From positions 913,332-977,331 of the forward strand of contig OZ007031.1 in NCBI GenBank assembly GCA_963931605.1: a stretch of DNA of 64,000 nucleotides. Reading direction: 5' to 3'. Both the position numbers and the translations under genes were made by a program. Shown here piece by piece: positions 2,738 to 46,243 of the stretch (positions are counted from its first letter, which is position 1; every line of letters starts with the position of its first letter). This DNA is from an uncultured Coriobacteriaceae bacterium (GTDB lineage Bacteria; Actinomycetota; Coriobacteriia; Coriobacteriales; Coriobacteriaceae). The notes under the pieces were generated by a model. That model saw only the letters and a list, made by a program, of their open reading frames with translations, was not told the DNA's origin and searched no databases.

Positions 2738-2828
2738 GGGGGGGCTCCTTCGCAGCTCGGGTGCAATGTCGGGCCTATTGTACGGCAAGCGTGTGGAGGT
2801 CTGAAGGCGAGCGGAGGGAGGCGCGCGG

Positions 2829-3440
2829 CGGTTGGTCGCGCTTTCGACAGCCGTCGCAGGGGCCGCGCGCTTTTCTCGGCAGGTGCGGCCGCGGTTAGCC
2901 GCGTTTCCGACGTCGCCGCAGGGGCTGCATGTTCTTCTCGGCAGGTGCGAGGGGCTCGTCAGGCCGCGCCGCCGACGCCGCCACAAAACGCCTGCTTTTC
3001 TCAGCAGACGCAAGGCGCAGTACCCATTTTCGCAACGACCCCTGATGCGGCGCGTTTTTCTCGACAGGTGCGGATCGCGCTAACCGCGTTTCCGACGTCG
3101 CCGCAGGGGCCGCGCGTTTTTCCCGGCAGGTGCGAGGGGCTCGCGGCGTTTCCCCAGGAAACGCGTTAGGGCCTGCGCGCTTTTCTCGGCAGGCGCAAAA
3201 CGGGCGCGCCTTGCGTGGGCGCGCCACCTCCCCCGCTCCCGCATCTGTCGAGAAGAACCTGCCGAGAAGGCCCCGGGACGGCTCCGCGCCCTGCGACTGC
3301 CGAGAAGAACGCGCGGGCCGGCAGCCGCCGCCCCAACCCGCTCTGCACCTGCCGAGAGGAACCCGCAGAAACCGGCTCAAAACCCTCATCCTCGCTGCAT
3401 CTGTCGAGAAAAACGTACGGTGTCGCAACCGCGGCCAAAA
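2829..3440. repeat. mirror repeat block A: six ~62-bp units carrying TTTTCTCGGCAGGTGC, then four to five ~52-bp units carrying the reverse complement
   Basis: Forward motif starts at 2871, 2932, 2996, 3055, 3117, 3181. Reverse motif starts at 3241, (3259), 3293, 3345, 3397. Confidence 0.85.
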
Positions 3441-3615: not shown

Positions 3616-3699
3616 GTGATCGTGAAGCTCACCGAGCTCGTTCGGGCGCTTGTTGCCCTTGTAGCTCTCATTATTATCCTGATGCTCTTGGTCAGGTAA
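3616..3699 (+). CDS. candidate small hydrophobic peptide, 27 aa (MIVKLTELVRALVALVALIIILMLLVR, GTG start)
   Basis: GAGGAGGG RBS lies 5 nt upstream of the GTG. An extended -10-like TGGTATGAT sits at 3552-3560. The patch is lower in G+C by eye. No homology evidence is available. Confidence 0.3.
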   Translation: MIVKLTELVRALVALVALIIILMLLVR

Positions 3700-3703
3700 A
3701 ATC

Positions 3704-5039
3704 GGGGTTATAGGACAAAAAGTGTGTATGGGCTAGTCCCAGTCCATACGGTATGGCTCGGAGCGATGCAGCTCTGACCACACTATGGCATCTCCCCACT
3801 GAGGAATGGTTCCTTGTAGCTTGTCCTGCTGATTGAGTCTCTCGTATATAGCTCTGATAGAGCCGTCCGTCGGCATGGCACGCAGGATCTCCGCTGCAGG
3901 CAAGGGGCTCGGGCTGTGCATACAGCACCACCAGAAGATCGCCTTGAGCCTGCGTTCGATAGAAAGTCCCCTATGGTCCCTGAGCATGGCTCTGAGCTGC
4001 GCGTTGGTGCCGCCTTCGATACGGTTGTTGGTGGCCGGGAGAGGGGCGAGGTGCTCTAGGCGGGGATCAAGGTAGGTGAACAGCGTCCCGGTGTTGATGA
4101 GCCGGGCGAGAGACCTCCGCGCCTTGACGAGGCGTTCATGCGCGAGGACGCACCTTCCCTCTTCCGTCTTCGTCCTCTCCGATAGGAAGTCGTCCCACCT
4201 CTCGGACCACGCAAGGAATGCCTCCGCCCACCCCTGCGCCTCTTTAAGGGTGGTGATGCCGAGCAGCGCTTTGGCAAGGCCGTACAGCTCTGCGCCCGCC
4301 TGCGTGCGGGGCTTCGAGGTGGTGTAGCGCTTGACCTGGGAGAATGCGTGGAAGATGCAGCGCTGGTGGTGCGCACGGGGCCATGTCTTCCCGAGCGCCT
4401 TCGGAAAGCCGTCGCCCCCGTCCGAGACGACCACCTCGGGGGCGGCTATGCGCTGCATCAAGGCCGACCAGCCGCGGCTGTTCTCCGCACGGCATAGGTG
4501 CCATCCCAGTACATGGCGCTCATCCGAGGCGATGAGCACGACGGCCTTTCTTCCGAGGTGTATGCCGTCAACGTAGATGACGCTTCGCGGCTCCTCTATC
4601 TTGGGCGGCATGGGCCATATATCCCAGAAGGGCGCGCACTTCCTTCTGAAGGTCCTGCCGGCCCCCGGCATATCTGATTGACGTTTGCGGGACAAAAGCC
4701 ACGCCAGGAAGGTTCTAAGGTCCTTGGCAGAGGTGTCGATCCTCCTCACCGAGCTCGAGCCGCAGCACCTACATCTGAAGCGAGTCCTGCCAGCTTTCGT
4801 TTTCCCGTTCTTAACCATATTGGAGCCGCAAACAGGGCAGCGGGGATTTCCCACGGCAACCTCGCAGATAGGCCAACTTCACTGTTAGAAACAACATGGT
4901 CTACCTGCGAGGATATGAAATTCTATACACACCTTTTGTCCAGGCAAAAGTTGGGACGATGCAACTCGAAGAGGCAATTTATAGGTATCTACCTGCAGTG
5001 ATACAGGAATCCCATACACACTTTTTGTCCTATAAGCCC
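3704..5039 (-). mobile_element. IS1249-like (IS256 superfamily) insertion sequence, ~1.34 kb
   Basis: Terminal inverted repeats GGGGTTATAGGACAAAAAGTGTGTATGGG (3704-3732) and CCCATACACACTTTTTGTCCTATAAGCCC (5011-5039) match at 28/29. They enclose a single transposase ORF. Confidence 0.85.
3733..4854 (-). CDS. IS1249-family transposase, 373 aa
   Basis: N-terminal zinc-finger CPVCGS...RFRCRCCG. The mutator/IS256-like core includes VIYVDGIHLGRK, VVSDGGDGF and HHQRCIFH. Confidence 0.88.
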   Translation of the reverse strand: MGNPRCPVCGSNMVKNGKTKAGRTRFRCRCCGSSSVRRIDTSAKDLRTFLAWLLSRKRQSDMPGAGRTFRRKCAPFWDIWPMPPKIEEPRSVIYVDGIHLGRKAVVLIASDERHVLGWHLCRAENSRGWSALMQRIAAPEVVVSDGGDGFPKALGKTWPRAHHQRCIFHAFSQVKRYTTSKPRTQAGAELYGLAKALLGITTLKEAQGWAEAFLAWSERWDDFLSERTKTEEGRCVLAHERLVKARRSLARLINTGTLFTYLDPRLEHLAPLPATNNRIEGGTNAQLRAMLRDHRGLSIERRLKAIFWWCCMHSPSPLPAAEILRAMPTDGSIRAIYERLNQQDKLQGTIPQWGDAIVWSELHRSEPYRMDWD

Positions 5040-5147: not shown

Positions 5148-5223
5148 TGGAGCCAGCAACGAGACTCGAACTCGTGACCCCCGCTTTACGAGAGCGGTGC
5201 TCTACCAACTGAGCTATGCTGGC
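5148..5223 (-). tRNA. tRNA-Thr (anticodon CGU), 76 nt with encoded CCA
   Basis: Cloverleaf folded by hand. Acceptor GCCAGCA/TGCTGGC, D arm GCTC/GAGC, anticodon stem CCGCT/AGCGG with loop CTCGTAA, T arm ACGAG/CTCGT with TTCGAGT loop. Confidence 0.9.
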
Positions 5224-5843: not shown

Positions 5844-6009
5844 GGCAACGCCTTTCGTGAAGCGGATGCGCGCGATGCGCCTTGTCGGTTCCATCATACC
5901 CGGATGCGCCGTGCGAACCAACCCGGCGCGGAGTTTGGGCGGTTCGGGTGGTGAGGGGCGGCTGTCCTGCGCTTGGATGCCAGCAGTGCGGGTAACCGCC
6001 GGGACCGGC

Positions 6010-6700
6010 GGCGCATCTGCCGAGAAAAATGCGCAGACTTTTTCAGCCGGCAATGCTTTCGCGACCAAAGGACTTTGCATCTAACGAGAAAAACGCGCGG
6101 GCTTCGTGAGTGGTGACGTTTTCGCAACCAAGCAGGGCATTCGATGTCGGAAGTGCGACCAACCGTCAGCGCCGGTAACGTACCTGCCGAGAAGAATGCG
6201 CGGGCCTCTCGGACGATGACGCTTTCGCGACCAAGCGGGACGATAGGTGTCGGAACCGCGGACAACCGAGTGAGACGAGTTCGGTTGGTCGCTGTTCCGA
6301 CATGGCCGATGTAGTTAGTCGCCCGAACCGCATCTAAATCCCGGAAATCCGGGAGTTGCGTGCGGCCCGGGCGACCAAGCGGAAGTTAGCGGTCGGATAT
6401 GCGACCAACCGGGAGCCTAGATGTCGCACTAACGGGCAAGTAGGAGCTTCGATGTCGCAACCGCGGGCAACTTATGCTTAGACGCCGGAAAGGTGACCAA
6501 CCGCCGGGGGCCACCGGTGCACCTGCCGAGAGAAATGCGCGAACTTCTCGGCCGATGACGCTTTCGCGACCAAGCGGGGCGATAGACGCCGCAAACGAGA
6601 GCAACTGCCAACGCCGGCGGCGTACCTGGCGAGAGTAATGTGCCCGCAGAGGGCGCGAGGCAGGAAGCTACCCCTCAGCCGCTGGCGCACCCGGCGAGAG
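6010..6700. repeat. repeat block B: GCAYCTGCCGAGAARAAYGCGC and GCGACCAAC/GGTTGGTCGC units around a palindromic core
   Basis: First motif starts at 6013, 6077, 6180, 6519, 6622, 6687. GCTTTCGCGACCAAGCGGG-type units lie at about 6054, 6117, 6219 and 6559. Dyad TCCCGGAAATCCGGGA is at 6339-6354. Confidence 0.8.
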
Positions 6701-13027: not shown

Positions 13028-13076
13028 GCGGGCGAGAAGCGCGCGGCGCTTGCGGGGCGAGGTTCTTCTCGCCCGC
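13028..13076. repeat. hairpin with 12-bp stem GCGGGCGAGAAG / CTTCTCGCCCGC
   Basis: Arms at 13028-13039 and 13065-13076. It carries the GGGCGAGAAG word also used in block C and in the palindromic elements. Confidence 0.7.
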
Positions 13077-13133: not shown

Positions 13134-13202
13134 GGGCCGGGGGCGATAAGGTTCCGAAATCCGATATCGGACGGATTTCGGGTTCTTATCGCCCCCGGCC
13201 CC
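13134..13202. repeat. ~70-bp palindromic intergenic element (copy 1 of 3)
   Basis: GGGCCGGGGGCGATAAGGTTCCGAAATCCG - atatcgga - CGGATTTCGGGTTCTTATCGCCCCCGGCCCC. It belongs to the same family as 41344-41415 and 44281-44348. Confidence 0.8.
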
Positions 13203-16106: not shown

Positions 16107-16544
16107 GGAGCCTCCCCCTCGTTGCAAGCTATATGGTTCCCCCCAGCTGACCTGGTCTTTGCCCCCACACTTGCGCACCGGGGCGTTTGCTCGGGCCGCC
16201 GCGGCGGCCTTCACGACTAACCCGCTCGCCCGCGGGGCAACGTGCCCCAGAGGTGGTATACGGACGGTGCGACTTACTCCTAGGACGCGCCATGATCGCG
16301 CGGCGCGCACGCCGTCGCTTACGTGGACCCTTTCGGCCGCGTCTGCCTTGGGATTGAACAGGCCTCGCGCAAGGGAGCGCGCCAACGGGCACCGTACCCG
16401 CGTGCGTGCGTCTTGCACCTATTCGCAACCACAGACCTGGGAGGAACGTGCGGCAGTATAACAAGAAGAAGCCTAACCGTAAACCTGAACTTGAATGTTT
16501 TGGACAAACGAACAGAGAGGCCGCGTCAGCCGACATGCCGACGC

Positions 16545-17165
16545 GGTGCAAGCGGGCGAAAAGGGGTGTTCACGCAGGGGCGCGCGGGCGAGAAGGGTGT
16601 TCATGCAGGGGGCGCGCGGGCGAGAAGGGTGCTCGTATGAGAGCGCGCGGGCGAAAAGAGCGTTCATACGAAAAGCGTGGGCGAGAAGAACGAGGCGCAT
16701 GGGCGAAAGGAGCGTTCATACGAGCGCTGTGGGCGACAATTGCGTTCATACGACAAGCGTGGGCGAAAAGGACGTTCGTACGGACGCGGTTTTGTCGGCT
16801 AAGCCTTCGCACGGTATTTTTATACCGCAATGCGACCAGCTAGCGGGGAGGCGCATGCCGTAGTGCCGCCCCTACGGGCAACTCCAGTCGTATGATTGCT
16901 TTTCTCGCCCATGCCTGTCGTATGAGTGTTGTTTTCGCCCATACCCGTCGTATGAATGCCTTTTTCGCCCACGCGGTTCGTATGGACGTTGTTTTCGCCC
17001 GGCAGGTCCGTACGAATGGTGATTTCGCCCACGAAGCTCGTATAAGTGCTGTTTTCGCCTGCTTGGTTCGTATGAGCCGTTATTGTCGCCCGCGTGGTTC
17101 GCATGGATGATGATATCGCCCACGGAACTTGCCACGAGGCTCGCACGCACGCTCTTTTCGCCTGG
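16545..17165. repeat. mirror repeat block C: 8 + 8 units of ~30 bp (GGGCGAAAA-N6-TCATACG-N8 and its reverse complement)
   Basis: Left units start at 16554, 16586, 16618, 16649, 16679, 16701, 16731, 16761. Right units start at 16889, 16919, 16949, 16979, 17009, 17039, 17069, 17100. Confidence 0.9.
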
Positions 17166-27139: not shown

Positions 27140-27265
27140 CGCGAGCCCGCAGATGGAGAGGCGATCCGACTTGTTCCGCAGCGCACCGCGGAAGTTACGG
27201 TTACTGGTATAGCCGGGGACTTGCACCCCGATTCCCCTGAGCAGCCGCCGGCTCCCCGGCCGCGC
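27140..27265 (-). promoter_or_regulatory. probable cobalamin (B12) riboswitch aptamer in the leader of the DUF4430-ecfT-ecfAA'S operon
   Basis: The minus strand reads AGGGGAATCGGGGTGCAAGTCCCCGGCTATACCAGTAACCGTAA...CCGCGGTGCGCTGCGG..AAGTCGGATCGCCTCTCC. This parallels the GGGAA-GGTG-AA-TCC / CCNGNAACNGTAA core and B12-box of RF00174 as I remember them. No covariance model was run. Confidence 0.6.
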
Positions 27266-36978: not shown

Positions 36979-37716
36979 TTAGGCCTCCGGGCAAAGGGAG
37001 AGCGCAGCCTCGTCGGCCACGATCGTAACATCCTGGTGGAACTGGAGGATGGAGGCGGGCAGCTGCGGGGTGACCGGGCCGTACACGGCGGCCTTGAGCG
37101 CCTCGGCCTTGTCAGCGCCGGAGACGACCACGAGGATCTTCTTGGCGCACATGATGGTGCCGATGCCCATGGTGTAGGCCTGGCGCGGCACGTCGTCGGC
37201 AGAGGCGAAGAAGCGCTTGTTGGCCTCGATAGTGCTCTCGGTCAGGTCGACGCAGTGGGTGGTGGCGGCGAAGTCGTCGGCCGGCTCGTTGAAGCCGATG
37301 TGGCCGTTGCGGCCGAGGCCCAGAAGCTGCAGGTCCATCCCGCCGAGCGCACGGACAGCGGCCTCGTAGGTGGCGCACTCGTCGTCAGCGTCGGGGTTCT
37401 CGCCGTTCGGCACGTGGGTGTTGGCCTTGTCGATGTTCACGTGGTCGAACAGGTTCTCGTTCATGAAGTAGTAGTAGCTCTGGTCGTTGGTGCGGGGCAG
37501 GCCGCGGTACTCGTCCAGGTTGTAGGTCACCACGTGTGAGAAGTCCACGTCGCCGGCCTCGTTGGCGGCGATCAGGTTCTTGTAGGTGCCCACCGGCGAG
37601 GAGCCGGTAGCCAGGCCGAGCTTGCTCTCGGGGTTGAGAACGACCTGAGCAGCGATGATGTTGGCTGCCTTGCGGCTCATGTCGTCATAGTCGCGCACGC
37701 GGATGATCTTGATCAT
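36979..37716 (-). CDS. nagB: glucosamine-6-phosphate deaminase, 245 aa
   Basis: Motifs GLATGSSPVGTY, YNLDEY and LGLGRNGHIGFNEP. Confidence 0.92.
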   Translation of the reverse strand: MIKIIRVRDYDDMSRKAANIIAAQVVLNPESKLGLATGSSPVGTYKNLIAANEAGDVDFSHVVTYNLDEYRGLPRTNDQSYYYFMNENLFDHVNIDKANTHVPNGENPDADDECATYEAAVRALGGMDLQLLGLGRNGHIGFNEPADDFAATTHCVDLTESTIEANKRFFASADDVPRQAYTMGIGTIMCAKKILVVVSGADKAEALKAAVYGPVTPQLPASILQFHQDVTIVADEAALSLCPEA

Positions 37717-37964
37717 GATCCCTCTTTCTGCCTGGGAGCGTCTGCTCCGCCCTTAGCACCTGCAGTGTTAAGTATACGTGAATTGATGAAAACCAACTGG
37801 TTACTACCAGTTGAATTCGCAAACGGTCGAAATCTCCATGTGAGGGGTCTAAACGGCAACATGTTGGCGGAAAATGTACAGAAATACGCGGCGAACGGCT
37901 GAGGCACGGCGTGTCGCCGGTGGCAAGGGTGCCTGCGGTAACGGTGCGCGATTTCCACGGGTAG

Positions 37965-38415
37965 CGGCGCGCGTTTTTCTCGGCAGGTGCTACGGTGCGC
38001 ATATTTCTCTCGACAGGTACGGCAGTGCGCACGCTTCTCTCGACAGATGCAGTCTACCTGAGCCTTTTGGGCCCAACCCTGCGCACTCTTCTCGGCAGAT
38101 GCAAAACCGACATGCGGCGCACTCCCCCAACGCTTGCATCTGTCGAGAAAAACCGGGCGAAATCGTGCAGCAATCCCTGCCGACGTCGCACCTGCCGAGA
38201 AGAACATGCCAACGCACCGTCAGTGGCCCCAGCCCCCTCACACCTGTCGAGAAAAACCAGCGAAACAGCGCGGCATACGTTGTCGACGTTGCGTCTGCCG
38301 AGACAAACTAACCGACATATCGCCAGCGGCTTTAACCTTCCTGCACCTGCCGAGAAGAACGCTCAAGGGGCCCCGCACTCGCACAAGCGGACGCATCTGC
38401 CGGGAAGATCGCGCA
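37965..38415. repeat. mirror repeat block E: four TTYTCTCGRCAGRTGC units, then six reverse-complement units at a 52-bp phase
   Basis: Forward motif starts at 37974, 38004, 38035, 38087. Reverse motif starts at 38136, 38188, 38240, 38291, 38343, 38393. Confidence 0.85.
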
Positions 38416-38452: not shown

Positions 38453-38488
38453 GAAAAAAGCGCTCCGGAGCATGAAGCCCCGGAGCGC
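38453..38488 (-). terminator. rho-independent terminator downstream of glmM
   Basis: On the minus strand: GCGCTCCGG-ggcttcatgct-CCGGAGCGC followed by TTTTTT. Confidence 0.7.
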
Positions 38489-38629
38489 TCGAAGCGCAAT
38501 CAGCACGATGCGGTGCAACGCCATCGGCGCAACATGATCAAGGCAACGTGACGCCCTCGGCGGACGCGTCGCCCGCAGCCGGGCACGCCCGCGCAGCACG
38601 CCCCGTCCTAGCGCCGTCGCCCCGCGCGC

Positions 38630-39970
38630 TTACTCGGCGCGGTACGGCTCGAGCGCCTTCAGCACGACGGCGTTGGCCTGCTGGCACAGCTCGTCGGTCG
38701 GCGCCTCGGCCAGCGTGCGCACAAGCGGCTCGGTGCCGGAAGCGCGCACGAGCACGCGACCGCGGTCGCCCAAAAACTCGTCGGCCTCCTTGGCGGCAGC
38801 CAGCACCGCCGGGTCGTTCATCGCCGCGTCCTTGTCGGTCACGCGCACGTTCACCAGCTCCTGCGGGTACAGCTTCACCGGCGCCGCCAGCTGCGAGAGC
38901 GTCTCGCGCTCGGCACGGATAACCTCCATCACGCGCAGCGAGGTCATGATGCCGTCGCCGGTGCACTCGATGTCGCCGAAGATGATGTGGCCCGACTGCT
39001 CGCCGCCCAGGCTGTAGCCGTTCTCGCGCATGCAGGCGTAGACGTACTTGTCGCCCACCTGCGTGGTCTCGTAGGAGAGGTGCGCCTGATCGAACGCCTT
39101 GAACAGGCCGTAGTTGCTCATGACGGTGGGCACCACGGTGCCGGCGGTGAGGCGGCCGTGCTTGTTTAGATACACGCCGCACACGTACAGGATGAGGTCG
39201 CCGTCGACCACGTTGCCGCGCTCGTCCACCGCCAGGCAGCGGTCGGCGTCGCCGTCGTAGGCAAAGCCCACGTCCAGGCCCTGCTCAACCACGTGGCGGC
39301 GCAGACGGTCGATGTGGGTGGAGCCGCAGTCCACGTTGATGTTGAGGCCGTTGGGCGCGTTGTTGATCACGCGGACGTCGGCGCCCAGCGCGTCGAACAC
39401 CGGCTTGGCCACCGAGGAGGCGGCGCCGTTTGCGCAGTCCAGGCCGATCTTGACGCCCTGGAGGGAGAAGTTGGCGCTGGCGATGAGGTGGGCGATGTAG
39501 CGGTTGCGGCCCTGCATGTAGTCGATCGTGGAGCCGATGGCGTCGCCGGTGGCCAGCGGCACCTCGCTCTCGCCGTCGATGTAGGCCTCGATAAGCTCAA
39601 GCACGTCCTCGTCCATCTTGTAGCCGTCGCCGTTGACGAGCTTGATGCCGTTGTCGGTGTAGGGGTTGTGGGAGGCCGAGATCATGATGCCGCAGTCGAA
39701 GCGGCCGTCGAGCGTCTCATAGGCCAGGCCCGGCGTGGGAATGACGTGCAGCATGTACACGTCGGCGCCGGAGGCCACGAGACCGGCGGTGAGCGCCGAC
39801 TCGAACATGTAGCTGGAGCGGCGGGTGTCCTTGCCCAGGACCACGCGCGCCTTCTTGCCCTGCCGCGCGCCGTAGTACCAGCCCACGTAGCGGCCGATCT
39901 TGAAGGCGTGGTCAACCGTGAGCCCCACGTTGGCCTCTCCACGGAAGCCGTCGGTGCCGAAGTACTTCAT
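38630..39970 (-). CDS. glmM: phosphoglucosamine mutase, 446 aa
   Basis: MKYFGTDGFRG, phosphoserine loop ISASHNPYTDNGIK, metal site FAYDGDADR, GEQSGH. AAGGAG RBS before ATG 39970. Confidence 0.93.
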   Translation of the reverse strand: MKYFGTDGFRGEANVGLTVDHAFKIGRYVGWYYGARQGKKARVVLGKDTRRSSYMFESALTAGLVASGADVYMLHVIPTPGLAYETLDGRFDCGIMISASHNPYTDNGIKLVNGDGYKMDEDVLELIEAYIDGESEVPLATGDAIGSTIDYMQGRNRYIAHLIASANFSLQGVKIGLDCANGAASSVAKPVFDALGADVRVINNAPNGLNINVDCGSTHIDRLRRHVVEQGLDVGFAYDGDADRCLAVDERGNVVDGDLILYVCGVYLNKHGRLTAGTVVPTVMSNYGLFKAFDQAHLSYETTQVGDKYVYACMRENGYSLGGEQSGHIIFGDIECTGDGIMTSLRVMEVIRAERETLSQLAAPVKLYPQELVNVRVTDKDAAMNDPAVLAAAKEADEFLGDRGRVLVRASGTEPLVRTLAEAPTDELCQQANAVVLKALEPYRAE

Positions 39971-46063: not shown

Positions 46064-46173
46064 AGTTCAATTTCAGAAGCCTTGCAAATTGAACTTCACC
46101 GAGTTTCTCTCGGCAGTATGTTCAATTTAGGCGCCAGTATAACACGGCAGAGTTCAAAGGATGGTTCAATTTT
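46064..46173. promoter_or_regulatory. cluster of five GTTCAATTT-type sites (putative operators) upstream of the HTH-aminotransferase gene
   Basis: Sites are GTTCAATTTC 46065-46074, inverted AAATTGAAC 46086-46094, GTTCAATTTA 46120-46129, GTTCAAAG 46152-46159 and GTTCAATTTT 46164-46173. The first two form an 11-bp inverted repeat with a 12-bp spacer. Confidence 0.45.
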
Positions 46174-46243
46174 ATAAAACCAGTGGGATCTTGCGCATAG
46201 ATGTGCCTGGCTTGCTGCCTGCACCAAGCCGGGCGCCCGATCC

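Follow-up and report, generated by a model that had tools for sequence, protein, structure and literature searches.

The intergenic region between glmM and nagB in the genome analysed here carries block E, a real, species-specific copy of a previously undescribed family of intergenic repeat arrays. About 450 bases of this region consist of 10-12 copies of one motif, arranged in two opposed arms with 4-5 forward and 6 reverse copies. The host, whose GC content is 67.7%, is an Olsenella-related member of the Atopobiaceae and a gut bacterium. We read block E as a solo, non-autonomous copy of a lineage-specific family of mosaic foldback repeats, with a probability of roughly 0.45 for this reading as a whole, in which protein binding, mobility and a link to a nuclease gene are the conditional parts. 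We found no earlier description of the motif string or of such Atopobiaceae repeats in the open-access literature searched.

Location and anatomy of block E

All positions refer to the window, i.e. the whole stretch of 64,000 nucleotides that was analysed. The features of block E and its surroundings are the following:

36979-37716, minus strand: nagB (glucosamine-6-phosphate deaminase; TIGR00502, 296.9 bits), downstream of the array
37771-37776, minus strand: TATACT, the -10-like hexamer of the nagB promoter, kept in relatives
37795-37812, no strand: palindrome AACTGGTTACTACCAGTT, likely nagB operator (dre/NagR-like), kept in relatives without the array
37945-37968, plus strand: degenerate outermost forward copy (TGCGCGATTTCCACGGGTAGCGGC), read from the sequence, about 30 bp ahead of the first good copy and pairing with the outermost reverse copy as an inverted repeat
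37967-38102, plus strand: forward arm, 4 copies of gcGCgcGT-TYTTCTCGRCAGRTGC, 16-mers at 37975, 38005, 38035 and 38087, spacing 30, 30 and 52 bp
38103-38135, no strand: centre between the arms (AAAACCGACATGCGGCGCACTCCCCCAACGCTT), with weak similarity to the centre of block A (3197-3240) in alignment
38136-38410, minus strand: reverse arm, 6 copies, 16-mers at 38136, 38188, 38240, 38291, 38343 and 38393, spacing 52, 52, 51, 52 and 50 bp
38458-38490, minus strand: intrinsic terminator of glmM, a 14-bp stem with a T run behind it; the array starts just downstream
38630-39970, minus strand: glmM (phosphoglucosamine mutase; TIGR01455, 529.8 bits; called as 446 aa), upstream of the array

The palindrome presumably corresponds to a site of the DasR/NagR dre type, which it resembles. 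The initial annotation had located the block between the glmM terminator and the nagB start, which is right, and its six reverse starts, spaced by 50-52 bp, are exact. For the forward arm it gave starts at 37974, 38004, 38035 and 38087 with spacings of 30, 31 and 52 bp; the last two starts and the outer two spacings hold, while the first two starts are one base too low and the middle spacing is 30 bp.

Both strands of block E fold into a nested hairpin of motif-motif stems (z-scores of -3.4 and -4.7). The symmetry about the centre is confined to the two innermost motif pairs; further out the arms are out of register (30 vs. 52 bp), and the spacers of the two arms are not complementary outside the motifs. 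Tandem Repeats Finder (TRF) detected only three 30-bp units in block E. Rfam gave no match in the block at either gathering or permissive thresholds, and a promoter scan of the array found no sigma-70-like site.

A conserved core in a divergent context

The motif is far too frequent in the window to be there by chance. With up to 2 mismatches, TTYTCTCGRCAGRTGC has 23 matches against 0.25 expected (100 shuffles, the largest count being 2), and the 10-mer TTCTCGRCAG has 16 exact matches against 0.30 expected. In the window and its 15 kb flanks, all matches to TTYTCTCGRCAGRTGC lie within three intergenic blocks and none in a gene. The isolated copy reported earlier at 46104-46116 does exist, but it is just a 13-nt partial match within a different repeat system, GTTCAAnTT.

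The full core, gcGCgcGT-TYTTCTCGRCAGRTGC, spans about 22-24 bp and is asymmetric, without internal dyad. Information content is limited to about 22 positions, flanks and spacers carrying none, and the repeat copies of block E are 16-24 bp long with 78-100% identity. The possibility of a coding repeat was rejected: the periods of 52 and 62 bp cannot be divided by three, and the conserved positions form contiguous blocks with no codon pattern.

Three other arrays of interest are found in the window:

2828-3420, no strand: block A, a paralogous array upstream of glf, with 6 forward copies (period 60-63 bp), a centre and 4 reverse copies (period 52 bp), plus one additional copy out of phase at 3255
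5990-6700, minus strand: block B, 4 good and 2 weak copies, all oriented alike (spacing 64/103) and interspersed with the modules GCGACCAA and GTCGGAA
16552-17124, no strand: block C, of a sister family with the unit TGGGCGAAAAG-N3-CGTTCATACGA, period 30-32 bp, two opposed arms

The reverse copies of block A start at 3241, 3293, 3345 and 3397. Its forward arm is a recent duplication of a three-unit super-repeat of 185 bp, whose 62-bp units are detected by TRF, and only its innermost pair is symmetric (62 vs. 52 bp). The two additional modules of block B are found in reverse complement in the spacers of block A.

The comparison of blocks A and E is informative about what is conserved. The cores of the two blocks are 81% identical whereas the spacers, in an optimised alignment, are 45% identical, which is the random level. 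A unit-by-unit homology of the spacers seemed plausible in the alignment and was rejected, as spacer pairs in register (28-40% identity) are no better than pairs out of register (10-53%); the earlier statement that the sequence between motifs is not conserved between the two blocks is thus confirmed. Outside the cores, the likeness of blocks A and E is confined to the short centre between the arms, where it is suggestive. Despite this divergence in sequence, the length of the spacers is held at 50-52 bp over eight intervals. Because cores are conserved, spacers random and spacer lengths fixed, these data argue that motif and spacing are under constraint and disfavour a recent segmental duplication, in agreement with the initial annotation. 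Its 52-bp phase common to both blocks is valid for the reverse arms; the forward arm of block A follows its own period of 60-63 bp.

Several observations concern the surroundings of the blocks. Between blocks A and B lies a low-GC segment of 2.6 kb with an insertion sequence (IS), a tRNA-Thr, a toxin-like small open reading frame and yhcH. In addition, blocks A, B and E all adjoin sugar or envelope genes (glf, yhcH-like, glmM, nagB). The adjacent IS1249-type element was considered as the source of the motif and rejected, its 29-bp terminal repeats (3704-3732 and 5011-5039) being unrelated; the only genomic location found for its transposase is that of the window itself. A replication fork trap or terminus was also rejected: the GC skew keeps its sign throughout the window, and rplM-rpsI-glmM is not the kind of neighbourhood expected at a terminus.

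Helical phasing of the copies

We then considered the spacing of the motifs in 10 arrays from 5 genomes. The spacings fall near multiples of 10.3 bp (R of 0.86-0.91), which is the best-fitting period within the range of 5-16 bp. The test of phase is post hoc and based on few independent periods, with P = 0.005 for 7 distinct values and P = 0.0002 with one value per genome and period. Two observations run counter to phasing: the 30-bp period drifts by about 30 degrees per unit, and the extra copy of block A lies 14 bp from its neighbour. The clustering at 10.3 bp points to a protein that would be bound along one face of the DNA.

Distribution among strains and related genomes

Within the species, block E was found in all six strains read, with 98% identity. 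Between strains, one whole unit of block E was replaced by a unit of the same length, and glmM and nagB do not vary among the six strains. The differences within the species amount to 2/159 in cores, 8/256 in spacers and 3/309 in flanks, the cores being not measurably more conserved.

In sister species, whose nagB is 84-96% identical, the glmM-nagB spacer measures 281-707 bp and is free of the motif; L193, L199 and L201 do not have the array. Beside nagB, these species retain the palindrome AACTGGT-N4-ACCAGTT together with the -10 box TATACT. The gene thus has its own conserved control module, and because the species without the array keep this promoter and operator, the array is best seen as a species-specific insertion or expansion upstream and not as the nagB control region. 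A cis-regulatory role for nagB, which the initial annotation implied, is therefore not upheld. In terms of annotation, the 900-bp glmM-nagB spacer is not a large regulatory region, the control of nagB being located in the last ~100 bp. In relatives without the array, the spacers are too diverged to place boundaries, target-site duplications or sharp element ends.

The same core was found in Olsenella, in Atopobium and in metagenome-assembled genomes (MAGs) of Atopobiaceae with GC contents of 50-66%, the range over all genera with the core being 50-70%; these copies include the GCGCGCG box, which was not part of the search (up to 7 of 8 positions). The neighbours of the arrays differ, that of L054 being located between thrB and an ABC transporter. 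The repeat grammar is not confined to this genome: the array belongs to a broader family of mosaic arrays in the Atopobiaceae, a part of which travel along with a nuclease gene. A strict two-copy pattern searched against 185,579 species genomes gave 58 matches, mostly due to chance and not including the genome of the window, which is masked or absent there, and only three loci in Atopobiaceae MAGs were informative. Scans of metagenomes and viral sequences returned almost solely chance matches or coding repeats. In one GC-rich contig from these scans (L182), the core is part of a 42-bp tandem array. BLAST of the array against 50,697 phage and 72,556 plasmid records gave no match.

Sister arrays and a nuclease gene

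At all four loci concerned (L196, L197, L204 and L205), sister arrays with a 30-bp period flank a gene of 355-382 aa on both sides. Block C belongs to the family that flanks this gene in L204 and L205. The gene was found in Coriobacteriales only, and its product has a Vsr/I-Bth0305I-like PD-(D/E)xK domain: PF18741 matches 18 of the 36 family members, the sequence match to PDB entry 3r3p has E = 0.0097, and Foldseek, run on an AF2 model with a pLDDT of 86, gives a probability of 0.92. Inverted repeats of about 50 bp lie on both sides of a remote homologue of the gene, at L208.

L196 and L197 have flanks with 98-98.8% identity, between which the whole 2.5-kb array-gene-array segment is replaced. 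Judging from these two sequences, the segment was swapped between the two strains as one cassette. The slot is also that of block E: the end of the cassette is about 285 bp upstream of nagB, block E being 230 bp upstream of it.

A tblastn search of the window with each of the 36 members of the family found no homologue of the nuclease below E = 0.05, and none was found in the 15 kb flanks. No member of the family is located on a contig of more than 113 kb, so there is probably none on the contig of 2.39 Mb to which the window belongs. A scan of viral contigs with one member (P0260) did not find the gene either. The motif of block E itself was not seen beside a nuclease gene at the loci found. 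The link between block E and the nuclease would lie in the common T-rich box (TTTTCTCG) and the common architecture.

Proposed origin of block E and alternative explanations

In the reading that we prefer, the core would be the site recognised by a sequence-specific DNA-binding protein that occurs across the Atopobiaceae. Because the copies are whole helical turns apart, proteins bound to them would all be on the same side of the DNA, where cooperative assembly would be possible. In this species, the array would have been inserted or expanded in the interval that separates the glmM terminator from a nagB promoter-operator which is older and self-sufficient. The arrays of the superfamily would form part of a selfish or cassette-like genetic element: the Vsr/EDxHD-type nuclease gene is flanked by sister arrays that share the T-rich box and seem to be exchanged together with it, and the arrays without a nuclease gene (blocks A, C and E) may be non-autonomous or relic copies.

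A more specific form of this proposal, which we regard as tentative and rather doubtful, takes the arrays jointly as the cis-acting ends, or the targets, of a selfish element of Coriobacteriales that belongs to a class not described before. The only gene of this element would be that of the Vsr/EDxHD-type (I-Bth0305I-like) nuclease, with a novel N-terminal domain. The nuclease would read a bipartite site, composed of the constant T-rich box and an allele-specific box, whose copies follow each other in helical phase in both of the opposed arms. At fixed chromosomal slots, among them that upstream of nagB, one whole array-gene-array cassette would take the place of another, and the arrays without gene would be either non-autonomous derivatives that bind the protein in trans or landing sites for homing.

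The exchange between strains can also be explained without a selfish element. As with the NIME arrays of Neisseria, an array may be a recombination substrate, providing many short sites, homologous or recognised by a recombinase, that promote the exchange of adjoining or enclosed segments between strains; it would then be a host-level device for diversity. The difference between L196 and L197, which is exactly the array-flanked segment between nearly identical flanks (98-98.8%), the 2.6-kb segment (IS, tRNA-Thr, toxin-like small ORF, yhcH) between blocks A and B, and the exchange of one whole unit of block E between strains are in line with this idea, which has been put forward for the neisserial arrays of 20-bp dRS3 and variable RS (PMC1797815). 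Block E, however, is flanked by conserved housekeeping genes alone, both invariable among six strains, and the model itself needs neither helical phasing nor fixed spacer length. Neither natural competence nor a dedicated recombinase is known from the lineage, which also counts against this explanation, and we hold it to be fairly unlikely. Helical phasing and a conserved core are what would be expected from a cis-regulatory or architectural element of the host, closest to the idea of the initial annotation: a phased landing pad for a regulator or a nucleoid protein, which would tune nagB or glmM, insulate the two transcription units or organise the chromosome. The location of the array between a terminator and a promoter, and of blocks A, B and E beside glf, a yhcH-like gene, glmM and nagB, would fit such a role. 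Yet sister species have the same genes, operator and promoter without the array, the neighbours elsewhere are unrelated (e.g. thrB and an ABC transporter in L054), 10-12 sites are far above ordinary regulator usage and the array contains no sigma-70-like promoter, which makes this explanation unlikely.

The nested hairpins raise the question of a role at the RNA level. A transcript of the array, started at a promoter of its own or produced by read-through of glmM, could form a long imperfect hairpin that stabilises or terminates the mRNA, as REP/BIME sequences do, or a sponge that offers its repeated motifs to an RNA-binding protein. The z-scores of -3.4 and -4.7 for motif-motif stems on both strands and the symmetry of the two innermost pairs would suit this role, which is nevertheless very improbable: a strong intrinsic terminator precedes the array, Rfam has no match, the arms are out of register beyond the inner pairs (30 vs. 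52 bp in block E, 62 vs. 52 bp in block A), the spacers lack complementarity, block B is single-armed and multiples of 10.3 bp are meaningless for RNA. We give hardly any more credit to a neutral minisatellite (VNTR/MIRU-like), produced by slippage and one strand switch and decaying without constraint or function, although the recent duplication in the forward arm of block A (three units, 185 bp), the turnover of units between strains and the within-species conservation of cores, no better than that of flanks, are compatible with it. Neutral decay would affect core and spacer equally, whereas cores are 81% identical and spacers random; spacer lengths are fixed in spite of a spacer sequence saturated with changes, and the core is retained across genera of 50-70% GC. 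Finally, the repeat-spacer anatomy with constant units of 52 or 62 bp recalls a degenerate or orphan CRISPR array with spacers derived from invaders. This possibility is effectively refuted by repeats of only 16-24 bp and 78-100% identity, arms in opposite orientation, some units of 30 bp that leave a "spacer" of about 8-14 bp, the lack of cas among called genes and profile matches in the window and its flanks (the window ORFs having been searched in part) and the lack of any match of the array in 50,697 phage and 72,556 plasmid records.

Block E is of interest beyond this locus. STAR, NIME and BIME arrays are common, and the mechanism of most of them is not known. Three handles are available here: a defined 22-bp core retained in genera that differ widely in base composition; spacer lengths equal to whole helical turns, which predict the assembly of proteins on one face; and the co-travel of sister arrays with a single nuclease gene, which provides a concrete candidate for the trans-acting factor. 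If the link with the nuclease were true, it would reveal a new kind of mobile cassette in abundant, little-studied gut Actinomycetota, and would account for the assembly breaks at such loci.

Comparison with known repeat systems

Foldback elements and MITEs, with Drosophila FB, the subterminal repeats of En/Spm, Tn7 and Mu as comparison set, share with block E the opposed arms of a repeated short motif, which amount to terminal inverted repeats. As in foldback elements, empty copies coexist with copies that enclose a nuclease gene, and presence is patchy between close relatives. The arms are however unequal in period and copy number, and the gene encodes a Vsr/EDxHD-like PD-(D/E)xK nuclease and no known transposase.

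REP units are palindromic hairpins of alternating orientation, tied to RAYT transposases, and BIMEs are bound by host proteins. Block E resembles them as an extragenic mosaic cluster, located between genes or after a terminator, with both orientations and other small modules; unlike them, it has a core without dyad and copies that keep one orientation per arm, and no RAYT gene was seen. The iteron and centromere arrays of plasmids (P1 incC/incA, the 43-bp repeats of F sopC) usually have a spacing of 11-22 or 43 bp and homogeneous units, beside rep or par genes. The likeness concerns the asymmetric motif of 16-22 bp, the many repeats, the spacing by whole turns (multiples of 10.3 bp) and the two orientations; the arrays described here are chromosomal and present at several loci, they adjoin glmM, nagB, glf, yhcH and an IS and no rep or par gene, and they have no plasmid match. 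Compared with MIRU/VNTR loci, which are made of full-length head-to-tail units, block E has a conserved core alone and spacers at the random level. CRISPR arrays consist of near-identical direct repeats of 23-47 bp in one orientation, which is not the organisation of block E. A nagB control region of the NagR/DasR type would be conserved with the gene, as is the palindrome AACTGGT-N4-ACCAGTT and not the array.

NIME are long intergenic arrays in which a 20-bp dRS3 repeat alternates with diverse segments of 50-150 bp; they are mosaic and dynamic, flank exchanged segments and have been proposed as recombinase binding sites (PMC1797815). They are unobserved outside Neisseria according to the same source (PMC1797815). 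The dRS3 repeat, which bounds the RS elements, is an inverted repeat, ATTCCC-N8-GGGAAT (PMC1797815), whereas the core described here is asymmetric and unrelated in sequence. Moreover, the spacers of NIME vary in length, while here they are fixed, helically phased and distributed over two arms.

The STAR elements of Staphylococcus aureus are intergenic, with a direct repeat of 14 bp, at least 40 bp between copies and units of about 50 nt (PMC3532100). Their locations are stable within a species and differ between species, their spacers are locus-specific and whole units are gained or lost; their function and means of spread are unknown (PMC3532100). The same organisation is seen here, with a core of 16-24 bp at intervals of 50-63 bp in blocks A and E (some units being of 30 bp). 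The STAR consensus, T(G/A/T)TGTTG(G/T)GGCCC(C/A), belongs to Staphylococcus and differs from TTYTCTCGRCAGRTGC in the Atopobiaceae, so that block E is an analogue and not a member of this family. STAR elements have a GC-rich core in an AT-rich genome, and block E has a T-rich core in a genome with 68% GC. STAR elements are described in terms of direct repeats, with no word of opposed arms or helical phasing (PMC3532100), both of which are seen in block E. Within a locus, STAR spacers are often near-identical whereas those of block E are unrelated, and no gene is known to be associated with STAR, while sister arrays here flank a nuclease gene. On our best reading, STAR and NIME arrays would nonetheless be the known systems whose anatomy is closest to that of block E.

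Motif and array anatomy

The motif TTYTCTCGRCAGRTGC was found 23 times in the 64-kb window with at most two mismatches, against 0.25 copies expected from dinucleotide-preserving shuffles, which bears out the initial annotation. The exact 10-mer TTCTCGRCAG occurs 16 times, for 0.30 expected. Every TTYTCTCGRCAGRTGC copy in the window falls within three intergenic blocks (A, B and E). The spans of motif copies, with the details of block E and its two flanks, are as follows:

2871-3412, block A, intergenic
6013-6534, block B, intergenic
37975-38408, block E, intergenic
about 37945, + strand, additional decayed forward copy of block E
37975, 38005, 38035 and 38087, + strand, starts of the block E forward copies (spacing 30, 30 and 52 bp)
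38136, 38188, 38240, 38291, 38343 and 38393, - strand, starts of the block E reverse copies (spacing 52, 52, 51, 52 and 50 bp)
36979-37716, - strand, nagB, one flank of block E
38458-38490, - strand, glmM intrinsic terminator, the other flank of block E

The location between the glmM terminator and nagB had been correctly recognized, as had the reverse starts with their 50-52 bp spacings. For the forward arm, the starts 38035 and 38087 hold, but the first two had been placed one base low. Alignment of 24 copies showed that conservation reaches 6-8 bases upstream of the 16-mer, giving a full motif (the core) of about 22-24 bp, gcGCgcGT-TYTTCTCGRCAGRTGC, outside which the flanks carry no information. 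A 52-bp period is indeed common to the reverse arms of blocks A and E, while in block A the forward arm repeats every 60-63 bp and is a duplicated three-unit super-repeat. The isolated copy proposed at 46104-46116 does exist, but it is merely a 13-nt partial match within a GTTCAAnTT repeat system, present five times (46070-46175) in the promoter region of the HTH-aminotransferase (MocR-like) gene.

Other features were noted in the window. A small open reading frame at 3618-3701 (+ strand) lies in a low-GC patch, behind a GGAGG ribosome-binding site; its highly hydrophobic product of 27 aa (VIVKLTELVRALVALVALIIILMLLVR) resembles a type I toxin. An IS1249-type insertion sequence (IS256 family; 3704-5039, 29-bp terminal inverted repeats) adjoins tRNA-Thr (5148-5223, - strand); exact matches to its transposase were confined to one genomic location, the window's own, and the ends of the element are unrelated to the array motif. 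Two hairpins lie at 13028-13076 and 13140-13196 (GCGGGCGAGAAG/CTTCTCGCCCGC and GGGGCGATAAGG/CTTATCGCCCC), and an AdoCbl-II (cobalamin) riboswitch aptamer at 27159-27238 (- strand; 37.3 bits, barely past the Rfam gathering score of 36.5). The 11-mer GCGGGCGAGAA has 8 copies, some inside genes, which by hand estimate seems far above the prediction from base composition.

Helical phase of the cores

In 10 arrays from 5 genomes, we measured the distances between the starts of neighbouring block E-type cores. The distinct values (30, 32, 42, 52, 62, 64 and 103 bp) cluster around whole multiples of 10.3 bp, the best period across 5-16 bp. In this post hoc test with few independent periods, the resultant length was 0.86 for the seven distinct spacings (P = 0.005, with random spacings of 28-105 bp as the null and periods of 10.0-10.6 allowed) and 0.89 when each genome and period contributed a single value (P = 0.0002). 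The 30-bp period drifts by about 30 degrees per unit, and one additional block A copy is 14 bp out of step. Such clustering is what protein binding on one face of the DNA predicts, and it is meaningless for RNA.

Constraint versus simple duplication

An alignment of blocks A and E matches all the cores and, weakly, the centre that separates the arms, with 81% identity in core columns vs. 45% in spacer columns. Spacers in register between the two blocks are no more similar than out-of-register pairs, and all eight 52-bp intervals are kept at 50-52 bp. If both blocks descend from one element, divergence of their spacers has reached saturation. Neutral decay of a tandem duplication does not fit such a pattern; core and spacing are either constrained or set by some mechanism. 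The initial proposal of a constraint on motif and spacing, rather than simple duplication, was sound. A neutral minisatellite is thus very improbable. Divergence within the species (2/159 differences in cores, 8/256 in spacers, 3/309 in flanks) is too small to reveal any constraint.

Host and control of nagB

The GC content of the window is 67.7%, and a compared stretch of 6.7 kb is 100% identical to a circular metagenome contig of 2.39 Mb. Because its GlmM is 83-85% identical to that of named Olsenella species, we place the host, on this comparison of sequences, among the Olsenella-related Atopobiaceae (Coriobacteriia). Block E is present in all six strains of the species that were read, with about 98% identity, and one 33-nt spacer with its unit has been swapped wholesale for a same-length unit between strains. 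The homologous glmM-nagB spacers of sister species (298, 707 and 281 bp; nagB 96%, 95% and 84% identical) do not contain the motif, even with three mismatches allowed. Just upstream of nagB, two features are conserved in all relatives examined:

37771-37776, TATACT -10 box
37795-37812, palindrome AACTGGT-N4-ACCAGTT (AACTGGTTACTACCAGTT)

The palindrome resembles a DasR/NagR-type dre operator. Block E was rejected as the nagB control region, since sister species without the array keep both elements. As these species share the last ~100 bp before nagB but not the motif, the control module of nagB is older and complete in itself, and block E is an upstream addition particular to this species.

A wider family of arrays

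A strict two-copy pattern, which has 7 matches in the window, was searched in one genome per species. It returned 58 matches, mostly by chance, and not the genome of the window's own species (masked, absent or assembled without these repeats). Three of the 58 are Atopobiaceae MAGs (Olsenella sp., Atopobium sp. and Atopobiaceae; 50-66% GC) with the same core, down to a GCGCGCG box on which the pattern placed no condition. On a metagenome contig of 70% GC, the core also occurs as a 42-bp tandem array. In block B, the core is mixed with two further small modules, GCGACCAA and GTCGGAA; because these recur reverse-complemented in the spacers of block A, the arrays are mosaics. A sister family is represented by block C, which a raiA RNA (16138-16445, - strand) directly adjoins:

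16552-17124, block C, two opposed arms of the unit TGGGCGAAAAG-N3-CGTTCATACGA, period 30-32 bp

All these array families have in common a T-rich box, TTTTCTCG(G/C)C or TTTTCGCCC. The array grammar therefore belongs to a family and is not private to this genome.

Arrays flanking a nuclease gene

In two strains of one sister species (L196 and L197), the slot upstream of nagB holds a 2.5-kb segment in which a gene of 355-382 aa lies between two opposed-arm arrays. Two further loci with homologues of at least 43% identity (L204 and L205) have the same layout, with arrays of the block C family. Opposed-arm 30-bp arrays flank the gene on both sides in:

L196, 2155-4717
L197, 2230-4717
L204, 1920-4600
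L205, 1580-4780

Both sides of the segment are 98-98.8% identical between L196 and L197, whereas the whole segment does not align at the DNA level and has been replaced between strains. The genes of the two strains share 52% identity, and their arrays come from different families (GGCGAGAA-N-GTCGATCCTA and TGCGCAAAAA-N-CCCGATACGG). Elsewhere in L196 (7518-10738), the aminotransferase gene is followed by genes with E2-CBASS (weak match), Prok-JAB and ThiF domains, which may form a defence module of the CBASS type; the equivalent position in the window is taken by a 404-aa gene and a racemase gene.

The gene family comprises 36 clusters, mostly on short contigs, and appears specific to Coriobacteriales, its sole source-named member coming from a Coriobacteriales MAG. 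PF18741 matches 18 of the 36 members and DUF559 matches 7. The catalytic domain of the homing endonuclease I-Bth0305I (PDB 3r3p) was matched by profile (E = 0.0097), and Foldseek on an AF2 model (pLDDT 86) gave probabilities of 0.92 for 3r3p and 0.77 for Vsr. The C-terminal domain is thus predicted to be a Vsr-type PD-(D/E)xK nuclease; the N-terminal 200 residues gave no match. Of two remote homologues, one (29%; L208) has ~50-bp inverted repeats (2763-2815 and 4187-4240) instead of arrays, and the other (~30%; L206/L207) has no array detected by TRF. L208 also has a second, outer inverted pair (2647-2668 and 4345-4366), a layout resembling an IS element. No homologue was found in the window or in 15 kb of its flanks, and all family members lie on contigs of 113 kb or less; the arrays of the window's genome therefore appear to be solo.

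Origin of block E

The anatomy, the statistics, the phyletic distribution and the occurrence of sister arrays beside the gene are direct observations. Our preferred reading of them, tentative at a probability of about 45%, is that block E represents a solo copy, either non-autonomous or relic, of a mosaic foldback repeat carrying phased protein-recognition cores, from a superfamily that spreads in a selfish or cassette-like element. The core would be the recognition site of a protein, and phased copies would line up the bound protein, perhaps cooperatively assembled, on one face of the DNA. The superfamily would move and turn over as part of this element, some versions of which would bear the Vsr-like nuclease gene; for the block E motif, we infer this by extension from the 30-bp families.

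Promotion of recombination, as proposed for NIME arrays, would account for the cassette swap but not for the phasing, and we hold it to be unlikely. A host regulatory or architectural site is less likely still, given the absence of the array in sister species and the unrelated neighbours of the arrays in other genomes. An RNA hairpin or sponge would fit the fold z-scores (-3.4 and -4.7); it is nevertheless improbable, as the array comes after a terminator, its arms lose register past the inner pairs and Rfam gives no match. Opposed arms, degenerate repeats, units of just 30 bp in some cases, no cas genes seen among gene calls and profile matches of the window and its flanks, and no phage or plasmid matches to the array make a decayed CRISPR scarcely credible.

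Comparison with known repeat systems

Block E is real and non-random, and the open-access papers searched gave no earlier account of the motif or of repeat arrays in Atopobiaceae. Such arrays are known in many bacteria, usually with unknown function; the interest of this one lies in its helical phasing, its conservation across genera and a testable link with a nuclease gene. In anatomy, the closest system is that of STAR elements, which have a 14-bp core, spacers of at least 40 bp, species-specific loci and unknown function (PMC3532100). Next come the neisserial NIME arrays, in which 20-bp dRS3 repeats between variable RS elements flank exchanged genes and are proposed to be recombinase sites (PMC1797815). 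REP/BIME, plasmid iterons and sopC, and foldback or MITE elements each have some features in common with block E. Block E lacks the feature, whether of sequence or of context, that defines each of these families. It is analogous to them without belonging to any, and represents an undescribed form of intergenic mosaic repeat array.
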